The notes beneath the pieces were generated by a model. The model was not told where the DNA came from, did not search any database, and saw nothing but the letters and a program-made list of their open reading frames with translations. The position numbers and the translations under genes are program-made. Source: Mobula hypostoma (Eukaryota). From it: a stretch of DNA of 64,000 nt. Each line of letters opens with the position of its first letter. Positions within the stretch are counted from its first letter, which is position 1. Location: assembly GCF_963921235.1 (NCBI RefSeq), contig NC_086108.1:58220001-58284000 (forward strand), in the 5' to 3' direction. Positions 3,360 to 41,433 of the stretch are shown here, piece by piece.

Positions 3360-4200
3360 TGCAGTTCTTGCTAGCTTTCTTCCATAATCTGTTTATCTTT
3401 TTCTAAAAGTCATCTTTCGCTGATTTCTATAATTTTCCATAATCTTCATGGCTACCATTAATCTTTCCAACAATGGGTGATTTTATTTTCAATTTGATAT
3501 AATTCTTTCTTTAATTAATCATCACTTGATTTATTTTCTTTTAATCTTTTTCTCTCAAAAGAATACATCTTTGTTGAGACTCAAAACATCTCTCCTTAAA
3601 TATCTGCCACTACTTATGTACTGTCTTACCTATTAGTCAATTTTTCCAGTCTGCTTAGCCAACTCTGCCTTCATATATTTTAATTATCCTTATTTAAATG
3701 TAAGGCATCTGTACAGCCCAAGTTCATCACTATCAAATTGAAAATAAAATGCTATCCTGTTACACTCACTCTCTCTGAGGGTCCTTTACTATGAGATAAT
3801 TAATCCCTTCTCATTATTCAAACAAATCTATATCAGTCATTATATACCATTTGAAGAATTGTCTCAAAAACACTGCTTCTCAGTACTACTATTACCAATT
3901 TGATTTCTCCAATTATCATAAAGAGGAAGTTTCTAGCAATCCATTATTATCTGATTCACTCTCCGCTCTACTGTTAGGGAACCCAGAGACAGTAACATCA
4001 GTGACAACTTTCCCTTGCTCCTCATCTCTAATCAAACTGATCATTAAACTTGATATGCTTGCTCCTTACAATTCCACTGATTTATTACTAAAAGACCAAT
4101 CACACCATCTTTACCTTTTTGCTTATCCTTCCAAAAAGTAGCTAGAATATTTAATTTCCAGCCACATTTTTTGTATTATCAGGTCATAATGTATATATTT
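3360..4200 (-). mobile_element. Very old CR1 remnant
   Basis: Patchy similarity by eye to the CR1 ORF2 region at 1-540; no ORF. Confidence 0.45.
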
Positions 4201-30345: not shown

Positions 30346-30436
30346 ATTAGTAATGTCTCTGCGAATAGAGCGCAGTGGATTGCCCTCAAGCAACAGAGAT
30401 TTCAACTTCGGGAGATTTCCCAGCTTATACGGCAAG
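30346..30436 (-). CDS. LRRC40: LRRC40 internal coding exon, 91 bp
   Basis: ttgacttgcag|CTTGCCG...ACTAAT|gtgag. (S)LPYKLGNLPKLKSLLLEGNPLRSIRRDITN matches recalled [29 protein letters not shown]. Phase 2 in, phase 0 out. Confidence 0.94.
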
Positions 30437-35838: not shown

Positions 35839-36439
35839 TAGAAGTCAATAAGACTGCCCAGATCCTGCAGTCTGTCACCATCAGTTTGCAACAATGGATA
35901 TCATCATTGCACCTGCCATGTTGCGGACCGAATCCCACATCTTGGTGCTAAACAGCTGAACTGTTTGCCCCAGCATACCTCTCATTGACGATCATGGGCA
36001 GCCTCTCCTCACCGAGTCATGGGTAATTCTTGTGCTTGGATTGCTAGTGGAGTGAGGGGCTCACACCAGGTCTCCAGCACAGCAACTCACAGTTGTGTTT
36101 AACTGAGAGTGTTGAAGCTGGAGAATTGAGAACACTATAACATAGACTATAAGACATTCCTTTGTACCAGACTACAGATTTTACATTTATCTCACTAGTA
36201 TCTTTACATCATGTATTCAGTTAATTTTATGTGATAAACCACGATAGTAGTTAAGTTAGTGTTAGTCCTCCAAATTTCAACACAGACAGGGTTACCTTCA
36301 AACCCAAATGCCAAGGAAGACAATACAGAGTATTAATTTATTACATCCCATAACTTCATTCCTCTCCGTACCACTTTGAACCATTCCATTGGATAGAATC
36401 CAGATTAATCCACACTTCAATGCTATCAGTGAAATATTT

Positions 36440-36622
36440 GCTCCAACAAAATCCTACCTTGGCGCCTCACCATGGTGTAGGAGTGACACAGGCCGAACAT
36501 CAGCGAAGTATGGCAGAGATTCATTCTCTGGCAGGTCTAACCTAGCCGTGAAGGTGATGTTCCACCGGGATACTACTAGACTAGATCTAGTAGTAGGATG
36601 ATGGCTAGCTAAGTCAAGGAGG
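36440..36622 (+). ncRNA. HDV-like self-cleaving ribozyme at RTE 5' end
   Basis: P1 (G)CUCCAAC/GUAGGAG(U), P2 CCUUGGC/GUCAAGG, P3 GCC/GGU, 7-nt L3 UCACCAU, P1.1 CA/UG, P4 CUAGCCGU/AUGGCUAG, J4/2 CUAA. Confidence 0.72.
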
Positions 36623-37304
36623 TAAGCATGCCTTTGCTACTTTGTAGGTTATGCCACTTCAGGCAAAGGCTGCACCCAACGAGGACGCCGGCAGCAGGGC
36701 GTCTGATGGTGTCTGTGGCAGGTGAATCCAAAAGGGTCAGTGGTACAGCCACCTTGGTGGCACGCGGAGGAACCGGAGTGTTGGTCAACGGATGGCATCA
36801 CTAGGCTAGTTAGTTGTCACTGCGGGGAACTTCCTTATCCGCTAAGTCTGTTACACTCCTGTGTACCACTGAGCAACAGATTTGGAAGCCCAGAGAGACT
36901 GTATGGTGGGGGCATGACACCGTCTGTTTTATTACTGTGCAAGGCATGTTGGAGTAGAGTTTCTGGATGGTGTGGAAAGCCCTGTGGCGATGGAGCTCAT
37001 GTGACGGCAGCAGGCTTGAGGAGCTGGAAGCTGCTAGCATGAACTCTGCACATAGGCAGCTCACATAAGATGGTCGCTACCTTGTTGAGTTTTCTGAGCA
37101 ACAACAGGGTTGAGGCAGCTATACGAGTGTCCAGGCAGCCCTTTTTAGGGAAAGTACTGCCCGCCCTGGAAGGGGAAGCCCCTAGAAAAGGTGGGGTAAA
37201 GAAAGCTTGCTCAGATTTCACCTGGCTGGCTCACCGCGGCCAGCGGGTCTTCACCACTGCAGTAAGAAGTTTAAGAAGATGAAACTGATTGTTGCCACAT
37301 GGAA

Positions 37305-37851
37305 TGTGTGCAGTTTTGGTCCCCTAATCTGAGGAAAGACATTCTTGCCATAGAGGGAGTACAAAGAAGGTCCACCAGATTGATTTCTGGGATGGCAGGA
37401 CTTTCATATGATGAAAGACTGGATCGACTAGACTTATACTCGTTGGAATTTAGAAGATTGAGGGGGGATCTCATCGAAACATATAAAATCCTAAAGGGAT
37501 TGGACAGGCTAGATGCAGGAAGATTGTTCCGGATGTTGGGGAAGTCCAGAACGAGGAGACACAGATTGAGGATAAAGGGGAAGCCTTTTAGGACTGAGAT
37601 TAGGAAAAACTTCTTCACACAGAGAGTGGTGAATCTGTGGAATTCTCTGCCACAGGAAACAGTTGAGGCCAGTTCATTGGCTATATTTAAGAGGGAGTTA
37701 GATATGGCCCTTGTGGCTAAAGGGATCAGGGGGTATGGAGGGAAGGCTGGTACAGGGTTCTGAGTTGGATGATCAGCCATGATCATACTGAATGGCAGTG
37801 CAGCTCAAAGGGCCGAATGGCCTACTCCTGCACCTATTTTCTATGTTTCTA
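37305..37851 (+). mobile_element. Young CR1 3' fragment inserted in the RTE ORF
   Basis: ORF 37299..37763; TTTCTATGTTTCTA tail; interrupts RTE ATWNV|MLDND. Confidence 0.92.
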
Positions 37852-40800
37852 ATGCTGGATAACGACTCAAGACCGGAAAGGAGAACTGCTTTGATAGCTA
37901 AGGAATTGGCAAGATACAACATTGATATTGCTGTGCACCAAGAGACAAGGATTGAAGGACAAGGCCAGATCCAAGAAAATACTCATACTCTCTTTTGGAT
38001 TGGGAAAACCAACGAAAGGAGAGATGCAGGTGTGGCCTTTGCTATTTCCAACAAGATTCCTAGCAAATTGCCAACACTTCCGATAGGGATATCTGAAAGG
38101 ATCATACGTGTTTCCATCGGAAAGGATCGTTTCCTGAGTTTGATCAATGTGTAAGCACCAACCATGGCATATTCCGACAAAGACAAGGAGTCCTTCTATT
38201 AGGAACTGGCTGAAATAACTGATAATGTCCCTAGGGCAGACAAGTTGCTCATCTTGGGAGATTTCAATGCCAGGGTAGGCAAGAATCACAGTACCTATGA
38301 AGGTGTCATTGGCAAATTTGGTAAAGGCAAAAATAACGCCAATGGTGAACTTACGCTAAACTTTTGCACTCAGAGGGAATTGTGTGTTTCTTTCGTCAAC
38401 CCGAGAAGAACTACTTCACCTGGATGCCCCCAAGGTCAAGGCATCTCCACTTGCTTGACTACGTTGCGACTCGCAGAGCAGATATGCCAGAGTTCTATCG
38501 ACAAAAGCAATGCATGGAGCAGAGTGCTCATCTGATCATTACATGGTACCAACACAACTTACTTAAACTGCTGCTGCCAAGGCGAAAAACACCCAGTGAA
38601 GCACCCAAGAAATTGGATGTCAACAAGTTGGCCAGTGAGGAACATCAGAGGAGACTTGTCACAGCATTGACATTATCTCTCCAAGAAGACAAAGACCCTC
38701 TCAATGACCCAACCAATATTGAAGAATACTGGAAGCAGCTCAAGAAAACCCCATTCATTCAACTGCTTGGCCACCCTTAGAGAAAAACTCCTGACTGGTT
38801 TCAAGAACAAAACGATTCAATTCAAGAACTGTTGGAGATGAAACAAAGGCTTTATATGTGTCACTTGAAAGAGAACTCTGAAAGAAGCAAAGCAGCATTT
38901 AAGGCCGTGAAAGCCAAAGTTCAAAGGGAGATCAGGGCTATAAAGAACAACTGATGGAATAAGAAAGCAGAAGAATTGCAAGCAATGTCAGACAGGAATG
39001 ACTACCATGGGCTCTTCTCAGGACTGAAAGCTATCTATGGTCCAAGAAGCAATACAGTGGCTCCAGTAAAAACTGCAGATGGGAACAAGCTATGTACTGA
39101 CAGGAAAGACATCACTGAGCGCTCCTGTAACCTTCTAAACCAACAAGGTGCAGCTGACCGCAATGCATGTGAAAAGCTCACAACTAGACCGGTAAGAAAA
39201 GAGCTATGTGGACTCATCACTATGACAGAACTTAACAAGGCTTTAAAAGATACCAGAAGCGGTAAAGCACCCGGGCAAGATGGCATTCCATCAGATGTAC
39301 TGAAGCAAGGTGGTCCTGCTCTGAAGACTGAACTGTTGAACTTATATAATGCTTGTTGGCAGAGTCAATGTCTCCCTCAGGACTTCAAAGATGCGCTGAC
39401 AGTCACCATCTACAAGAAGAAAGGCGACCGTAGTGTTTGTGGAAACCACCGAGGAATCTCCCTTCTGTCCACAGCTGGCAAGTTTATGGCGAAGATACTG
39501 CTCAGCTGGCTCAAGATCGTCTCAGAAGACGTGCTTCCTGAAAGCCAACGTGGCTTTAGGGCTGGAAGAGCAACCACTGACATGATTTTTACTTTGAGGC
39601 AACTGCAGGAGAAGGCAGTAGAACAGCAGCAAACATTGTACATTGTCTTTGTTGATTTCTCACAAGCATTTGATACGGCGGACAGAGAAACACTCTGGGA
39701 AGTGCTCAAAACTTATGACTGTCCAGATAGGCTGGTTACGATGATCAAACTGTTTTATGAGAACATGTCTGGCAAAGTATCTATCGGAGGAGACGTCAGC
39801 GAAGCCTTCACCATCAACCACGGGGTAAAACAGGGATGCGCTCTTGCTCCAACTTTGTTCACACCATATCTTGCTGCAGTTTTGGAAATAACAGACCATA
39901 ATTTGGACAAAGGTGGGTACATAGGACTCGCTCAGATGGAAAATTGTTCAACCTGTCAAGACTCAAAGCCTCAACCAAATCAAGACAGATATGTGTCAGA
40001 GAACTTCTGTATGCAGACCACTCAGCCCTGGTTGCTACTGATGTTAATGTGATTCAAGAAATTGTAGACCGCTTCTCGCTTGCTGCCACTCTTTTTGGCC
40101 AACAATCAATGTCTCCAAAACCGAACTTCTGTACTAGCCTCCTCCTCTGGGTAGTCCCAGTGAGACCCAACCACCAGTCCTATCGGTCAATGGGATAGTG
40201 CTGAAATGTTCTGAATCTTTCACATACTTAGGAAGCGCTGTGACCAACACCAACTCATCAGATCTAGAAGTTGAGAGGAGAATTCAATCAGCTACAAAAG
40301 TCTTTGGTGCTTTGCAGAAGCGACTTTGGTCTCACCACGGTATTAAAATGGCAACCAAGGTCAAAGTGTATAACACAGCTGTTTTACCATCTCTGCTTTA
40401 TTCAACTGAAACGATGATATTGTATCAGAAGCACATCAAGAAATTGACCAAGACACAACACAAGCATTTATGCCAAATATTACACATCAAGTGGCAAGAG
40501 AGGGTACCAGATGTGGAGGTGCTCAAACGTGCTGGGACAGTCAGCGTAGAATCGCTCATCACAGCTTCTCAGCTGCGTTGGACTGGTCACGTCACAAGAA
40601 TGAGCGATGATCGTTTACCTGAAGCTGTTTTCTCTGGCGAGCTACACGAAGGAAAGAGGAAGCATGGTGGTCAGAAGCTGCACTACAAAGACATGCTCAA
40701 GCACCAGATGAAGAACACTGACATGAATGTCAACCCCTGGGAGAAAGATGCTCTGGACAGAAGAAGTTGGCACTGCGTTGTCAAGAAGTCAATCCCAGCT

Positions 40801-41178
40801 ATCGAGGAGAAAAGGCAGAAGAAATATGAAGCAGGTCATGAACGCAGACATTCAGCGCTAGACCAGTCAAATTACAAATGCAACCAATGTGGGAGACAGT
40901 GTCGATCCAATGCTGGTCTTGTGGCCCATAAATGTGCCTGCAGAGACTAAACTCTCAGCACAGTCAACATCGAAATCGATGGACAGCCGAAGAAGAAGAT
41001 TTGCTCAAGTCCAGCAATCCTTTCTGGAAAACTACACAACAGCTCAGAGTTGTGAGTAACCAGTAACAGCCTACATGCTGTTTAGTAGCATGGCAATTTT
41101 ACTGTATACAGTTCATTCTAAACAATGCAGAAGTGCACTAATTACAAGCATTTGTATTATTTCAGATGAACTATACTA

Positions 41179-41433
<255 letters not shown>

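Follow-up and report, generated by a model that had tools for sequence, protein, structure and literature searches.

What sets the 5' end of the LINE found at 36441-40998 of the window (the 64-kb stretch of DNA analysed here, in whose coordinates all positions are given), and how do the short, two-ended copies of its family come about? We consider it quite probable that the first 180 bases of the element hold a predicted HDV-like ribozyme, decayed in this copy, which likely frees the element's RNA just before C36441, and that the miniatures arise by jumps at a predicted helix. What is directly observed (the fold, a sharply defined 5' end, one EN-RT ORF and the TSDs) is described below before the mechanism that it suggests.

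The window copy is a full-length element on the forward strand, as are all its features listed here, in good agreement with the initial annotation of a near full-length RTE LINE. It starts at C36441, carries a single EN-RT ORF (37279-40950), ends with a (GAA)n tail (40989-40998) and is flanked by a TSD, ATTTGCTC, at 36436-36443, with a second copy at 40999-41006; the last three bases of the 5' TSD are common to the start of P1 (microhomology). In this copy the ORF is broken by stops, frameshifts and a later insertion of 537 bp (37313-37849), which is the 3' end of another LINE, presumably a CR1/HER1-like one, which would suggest a shark or ray; it falls inside the endonuclease domain and is not found in the seven other long copies. 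The majority sequence of the eight long copies has 1,089 open codons, and the ORF matches the RVT_1 domain; protein relatives are ~1,050 aa long with PF03372 and PF00078, the closest being 60-79% identical. The 5' UTR is 838 nt and the 3' UTR 38 nt long. A single EN-RT ORF, a short 3' UTR, a microsatellite tail and a TSD mark the RTE clade; the family has the short 3' UTR and the microsatellite tail as well as TSDs of 7-15 bp, and we take the element to be of RTE type from its anatomy (one EN-RT ORF, the UTRs and the (GAA)n tail) rather than from an RT tree, no labelled RTE reference being among the protein relatives returned for the ORF. Leucine-rich-repeat exons on the minus strand flank the element (near 30405, 41176-41433 (41403) and 42332), and the element is intronic and antisense to this gene, which we take to resemble LRRC40. 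The family was sampled from the 3.5-Gb source genome as the window copy plus 48 others chosen by 5'-end similarity, a choice that favours 5'-complete copies; copies differ from the family majority by ~3-5%.

The first 180 bases contain the helices of an HDV-type ribozyme in the nested double-pseudoknot order P1, P2, P3, P1.1, P4. The 5' strand of P1 (36441-36447) begins with the element's first base, the predicted +1, and pairs with 36477-36483 so that G36483 faces C36441; A36445 makes the one A-A mismatch, which is private to this copy. After the 9-nt J1/2 (36448-36456), the 5' strand of P2 (36457-36463) pairs with 36613-36619, and 95.9% of the cells of this helix are paired across copies; 36453-36455 can extend P2 with 36620-36622, which takes the P2 3' side to 36613-36622. 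P3 (36464-36466 with 36474-36476) closes a 7-nt L3, the whole spanning 36464-36476; within it, A36472 stands where the family has G (the equivalent of G25) and U36476 where the family has C. The two P1.1 pairs, C36468-G36485 and A36469-U36484, bring together C36468-A36469 and the UG at 36484-36485. J4/2 is CUAA (36609-36612), with C36609 at the catalytic-cytosine position. On each of these elements, and on the perfect 10-bp hairpin at 36571-36580/36586-36595, the initial annotation agrees with the sequence letter for letter.

It differs in P4. The annotated pairing (36542-36549/36601-36608) is complementary in the window copy, yet when 36486-36608 is folded its probability is 0.00 in the majority sequence and 0.05-0.06 in the window copy. 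The same folds give a nearer register, 36489-36494/36603-36608, a probability of 0.96-1.00 in the majority sequence and of 0.86-0.93 for the four pairs that survive in the window copy, where T36490A masks it. P1, P1.1 and P4 stack in HDV-type ribozymes, and P4 must stack there (PMC13635239); the nearer register begins 3 nt past P1.1. We therefore favour, as a folding model, 36489-36494/36603-36608 as the closing helix of a P4 domain (36489-36608) with a predicted three-way junction, whose arms would be a long one at 36495-36562 and a hairpin at 36566-36601. With P4 in this corrected register the nested order is complete. An HDV-type descriptor, composed after the motif had been seen, matches the majority sequence and, in relaxed form, the window copy, with no match in 20,000 dinucleotide shuffles of each. 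The relaxed descriptor has a single match on both strands of the window, against 0.15 per shuffled window. A scan against Rfam gave no HDV-family match for the window copy or for five better-kept copies, for which the 120-nt P4 domain may account. Note that in a fold that disallows pseudoknots the true P1 has a probability of 0.01, and a decoy register using 36452-36457 one of 0.3-0.4. P1 and P2 are separated by a 9-nt spacer that the decoy register does away with, and leaving out such a spacer gave no activity in PMC4908430. Two UCCU-like and two AGGA-like blocks (36442-36445, 36452-36455, 36479-36482 and 36618-36621) allow decoy pairings that rival P1 and may slow folding or serve as a switch.

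The position of the 5' end is well defined. Conservation across the 49 copies starts at 36441, and 36440 is as variable as flanking sequence (T19, A17, C7 and G6 of 49), with nothing shared upstream: full-length copies thus have the preferred 5' end that the initial annotation proposed to look for. Its register, which had been left ambiguous between G36440 and C36441, is settled in favour of C36441, G36440 being unconserved. The TSD from which the motif was said to start is present; its last three bases are also the ones that open P1, which places the start of the motif within the TSD and not behind it. To offset the bias towards 5'-complete copies, 16 copies were picked by their endonuclease domain regardless of the 5' end: 13 end within 10 nt of 36441, and three are cut inside the UTR. 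A TSD could be called in 25 of 45 copies, 12 of them starting at, or compatible with, +1 (L155, where a 1-nt insertion shifts the register, was scored as such by eye) and 13 clipped by 1-14 nt; none has extra element sequence upstream. In contigs of four public DNA sequencing runs, one of which may be the assembly's own source, 36441 is the site of 8, 4, 9 and 10 loose ends, and coverage climbs there from 7-29 to 470-1,590.

The base at +1 is C in 22 of 49 copies, the remainder being mostly clipped ends, and the C36441-G36483 pair departs from the rule of a G (purine) at +1. G1 is called invariant in HDV-like ribozymes (PMC8495972), and in HDV a G1:U37 wobble is called required (PMC1874588); a U:A pair in P1.1 is described as compatible with fast cleavage (PMC13635239). 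The rule would be saved if the true +1 were the preceding base, a purine belonging to the flank, with an 8-bp P1 ending at U36484: the G36440 of the window copy could wobble with U36484 and so restore G1-U. We consider this very unlikely, as 36440 is G in merely 6 of 49 copies, the TSD abuts C36441 without microhomology in eight (L133, L136, L138, L140, L147, L163, L167 and L344) and P1.1 would be left with A-G and C-A mismatches. The composition of 36440 and the TSD positions led us to dismiss the 8-bp register and to keep C36441 as +1.

The majority sequence of the 49 copies keeps P1, P1.1, P2 and P3 fully paired, which bears out the expectation that a consensus would retain the fold. P1 has 7 of 7 pairs in the majority and 6 of 7 in the window copy, whose A-A mismatch occurs in no other copy (T in 38 of 49). 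The two P1.1 pairs are kept in 48 (C-G) and 47 (A-U) of 49 copies, the J4/2 bases C36609 and A36612 in 48 and 46, and the bases of the L3 reverse wobble in 48 (U) and 37 (G; A in the window copy). A36472 and U36476 had been put down to CpG decay, and rightly: the majority has G (37 of 49) and C (35 of 49), and the decayed states recur in 12 and 11 of 49 copies. All core pairs and bases are intact in three copies (L136, L140 and L141). The window copy was suspected of being weak, and it is even more damaged than supposed, with four core changes: the P1 A-A mismatch, L3 G to A, P3 G-C to G-U and a P4 pair broken by T36490A. In R2 ribozymes P1 mismatches are reported to coincide with lost cleavage, and in a wasp R2 ribozyme the same L3 G-to-A change abolished it (PMC3774820). 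Judged by its sequence, then, the predicted ribozyme of the window copy is probably weak or inactive. Within the family we found no covariation signal (double changes occur in four pairs, where shuffles have 6.9, among 49 copies that lie ~4-5% from the majority), as expected since the copies decay from one burst. Three C96 copies with an altered P3 have identical flanks and are duplicates, with no compensating change.

The initial annotation's inference that this RTE family uses a 5' HDV-like ribozyme is supported by the pairing kept in the majority and by the sharp 5' end. By analogy with the HDV family, the ribozyme would cut the LINE RNA immediately before C36441, with C36609 as general acid together with a Mg2+ ion and in the setting of a C1-G pair and a CA/UG P1.1; the cut would leave an uncapped RNA with a 5'-OH, and the folded head would resist decay. 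As modelled, the region would work like an HDV-like 5' processing ribozyme, one that fails the G1 rule and an Rfam match. Could an internal promoter instead set the end at 36441, the fold being a relic or a stabilising cap, or promoter and ribozyme sharing the same bases? The C at +1 that violates the G1 rule would suit such a promoter, and L1Tc is described as an element whose promoter and ribozyme occupy the same sequence (PMC3383444). Moreover, the window copy and L133 have 56 substitutions in common (A36472, U36476 and A36490 among them) but separate TSDs, and both start at +1; should a single lineage have been copied with these changes already in place, its exact 5' end was made despite a damaged core. 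Yet a promoter alone has no need of five interlocking helices with the catalytic C and A (0 of 20,000 shuffles), A36472 and U36476 recur by CpG decay anyway, and the pair of window copy and L133, 4.4 Mb apart on the same contig, may reflect gene conversion. We regard the promoter as an unlikely source of the end and proceed with the ribozyme.

Ribozymes were reportedly found at the 5' ends of RTE elements by Ruminski in 2011, a study cited in PMC3774820, PMC5786205 and PMC6765202, and a ribozyme at this place is expected; what is new is a predicted ribozyme with C1-G and CA/UG, together with the copy-by-copy spread of junctions described below. Our search of the open-access literature found no publication that describes a comparable C1 ribozyme, a ribozyme in an RTE element of a vertebrate or pairing between the ends of an RTE RNA; C1 or CA/UG ribozymes may already have been published elsewhere. 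If the C1-G ribozyme is active, the HDV consensus now in use would have to be broadened, and members of this kind would be escaping searches that require G1 and CC/GG.

Distant relatives were sought among metagenome sequences, where 80 RTE-like loci match the query protein at 33-55% identity in their best segments; 71 of them have sufficient upstream DNA. Upstream of these ORFs, HDV-like cores number three in sense against none in antisense (eight against two under relaxed settings). Eight loci with credible cores (L043, L044, L045, L053, L057, L067, L068 and L069), which we list as candidate HDV-like ribozymes, have C-G at the position of the family's A-U pair in P1.1, pairing there being a requirement of the scan. 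These cores do not align with the sequence of the window element, and the J1/2 motif that the family has in common with Dong (see below) stands beside a core in none of the 80 loci. Two sister families in the same genome, C and D (L328-L361), with thousands of first-look candidates, have a different HDV-like head, which begins with G, likewise has CUAA as J4/2 and carries a hairpin within L3. An apparent second family with the J1/2 motif was rejected as an unrelated repeat, without P1 or P3 in the 17 copies inspected; it is presumably the antisense strand of another LINE. Likewise, 80 of 91 viral-contig matches to the motif pattern were examined and discarded, P3 with UG being present in 0 of 24 distinct contexts.

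We turn to the two-ended copies. Besides the window copy, which is full length, the sample holds 34 head-to-3'-end miniatures, seven long copies, one long copy with an inverted head (L349, the same as L149, in which the first ~350 nt have the opposite orientation to the rest) and six others. Of the parent, the miniatures retain the 5' end and the 3' end alone, and each has its own TSD. In 21 of 34 the head stops at element nt 508-511, and in three more at nt 517; the tail begins at nt 4026-4027 in 22 of 34. The 34 copies have 27 distinct junction strings (later insertions inflate three of these, and decay can raise the number further), the commonest occurring in four copies, and a single junction shared from a master copy was not seen among them. 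Read on the sense strand, the junction fillers are rich in A: 12 hand-picked ones hold 21 A, 11 T and 2 G, with 8 of the 11 T from one copy. One insertion, L138 (254-790), is head-only: it runs from C+1 to nt 517 and has a short A-rich tail and a 12-bp TSD. Rare non-CpG changes are shared most by the window copy and L133 and by L146/L168 (six each) and by L140/L152 (five), the next pair sharing three (L149, L171, L176 and L179 were set aside, as their short heads misalign). These top three pairs lie 1.5-4.4 Mb apart on one contig with different flanks, a closeness found in 5 of 1,176 pairs, and the sharing may reflect local re-insertion or gene conversion. As L168 is short and L146 full length, their six shared changes point, at the level of sequence, to full-length templates for short copies, unless gene conversion produced them.

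The junctions coincide with a predicted pairing between the two ends of the RNA. Of 384 windows assessed for pairing with the last 70 nt, nt 503-537 is best (z -4.0), and the predicted helix has ~19 pairs between nt 507-526 and nt 4007-4027. Its 5'-UTR strand (36946-36965) holds the junction hot spot at 36947-36950, and its 3' strand (40941-40961) spans the stop codon and ends where the miniatures resume (40960-40961). The main junction cluster thus sits at the base of the helix and the nt 517 cluster opposite its internal loop. At nt 503-537, 4 of 1,000 shuffles have as low an energy, and 24 of 100 do as well somewhere; an ungapped-helix test misses the helix of this family, 25 of 40 shuffles being as good. 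Since the energy is unexceptional and the ungapped test negative, the argument for the helix rests on its position. Relative to the start of the ORF, it lies at about -330, and families C and D have perfect helices with other letters at -341 (13 bp) and -367 (10 bp); 0 of 40 shuffles are as good in family C and 6 of 40 in family D, and the heads of both end at the helix. An advance prediction of the family D junctions (nt 292-330) failed, with 11 of 30 heads ending at nt 495-505, at a different helix. Of 21 distant elements, 16 have a usable 3' end; only seven of these beat the ORF controls, and in five at most 1 of 40 shuffles is as good.

Extrapolating from these copies, the 5' UTR would, ~510 nt downstream of the cut, pair with the 3' end across the ORF; the reverse transcriptase would stall at the base of the helix after ~30 nt of tail and often jump onto the head, yielding ribozyme-headed miniatures again and again. 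The in-register clusters are consistent with an enzyme that skips over the helix on a single RNA, and it is likely that the miniatures arise anew during reverse transcription. Could they instead go back to a single deleted master element, to a few such masters or to deletions at the level of DNA, the helix being a coincidence? Sister family C does look master-like (26 of 30 copies short, with five junction strings), L140 and L152 share their junction along with their five rare changes, and the helix energy is unremarkable by itself. We nevertheless hold this origin to be improbable: it sits poorly with 27 strings in 34 copies, with untemplated fillers, with two clusters in helix register and with the six rare non-CpG changes that short L168 shares with full-length L146.

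Harder to set aside is a second proposal, which retains the ribozyme and alters only the jump step. Here a discrete head RNA of ~510-520 nt, with a ribozyme-made 5' end and a trimmed, often oligo-adenylated 3' end, would be the acceptor of an end-to-end jump, and the helix would be its tether. The head-only insertion L138, with its A-rich tail, and the A-rich fillers are what such an RNA would leave behind, as are the family D heads ending at nt 499-505 that are joined to a SINE (tRNA-like as judged by eye) with a family D tail. Seven such fusions of a ~500-nt family D head to the SINE, with variable A-rich junctions, are seen in L384, L391, L394, L395, L396, L402 and L409. Against it, there is a single head-only copy, and the nt 517 junctions face nt 4015 in helix register, as an intramolecular jump would give. 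We think the head RNA possible but somewhat doubtful. A further reading is that the RTE RNA works as a closed loop. An HDV-like ribozyme cleaving with a pyrimidine at +1 would cap a head of ~510 nt, pairing would hold this head to the 3' end close to where reverse transcription starts, and tail-to-head jumps of the enzyme would be routine; we put this forward tentatively, as a proposal nearly evenly balanced between true and false.

Were the closed loop true, every retrotransposition burst would make miniatures directly and repeatedly. This would explain why RTE is among the few clades that make two-ended elements, and it would provide a design rule for RTE-based gene-writing templates. Why few LINE clades yield two-ended non-autonomous elements is stated as not known (PMC5786205); the junctions of this family are a natural experiment that maps onto the predicted 5'-3' helix and makes the clade question testable. 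RTE elements already serve as gene-insertion tools (PMC13708176), and in such use tail-to-head jumps would delete the payload.

How does the family compare with known systems? With the closest HDV-like system it shares the nested double pseudoknot, a 7-bp P1 starting from the element's first base, a 7-nt L3, the C and A of J4/2 and variable microhomology at the 5' junction. It differs in the C1-G pair at the predicted cleavage site, the CA/UG P1.1, the 120-nt P4 domain with a three-way junction and the vertebrate-type host. Dong encodes another endonuclease class and, unlike the family, starts with G. The ribozyme of this R4-clade silkmoth element is reported as active, and a Dong primer, 18 nt of which were compared, resembles the family around 36448-36458: a 7-nt P1 is followed by an identical 11-nt stretch, AAAATCCTACC (PMC3774820). 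This identity, noticed post hoc, crosses clades and may go back either to shared ancestry of the 5' module or to a motif that serves a function; a search of the open-access literature for the J1/2 motif gave a relevant match only in PMC3774820. The U:A pair in P1.1 has counterparts in the fast-cleaving HDV ribozymes of C. briggsae and Ackermannviridae, the fast cleavage being theirs; their second P1.1 pair is non-canonical (C:U and U:U), unlike the C-G of the family (PMC13635239). Finally, the miniatures resemble the bipartite LINEs RTESINE, WALLSI3, Bov-A and NARTc (PMC5786205) and the R2 SIDEs (PMC3414825) in keeping only two ends with a ribozyme head, and a template jump is one proposed origin of bipartite non-autonomous LINEs (PMC5786205, PMC3414825). 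In these two sources the known elements are described as families that descend from a founding deletion; in the family studied here, by contrast, junctions are individual to most copies and cluster at the predicted 5'-3' helix.
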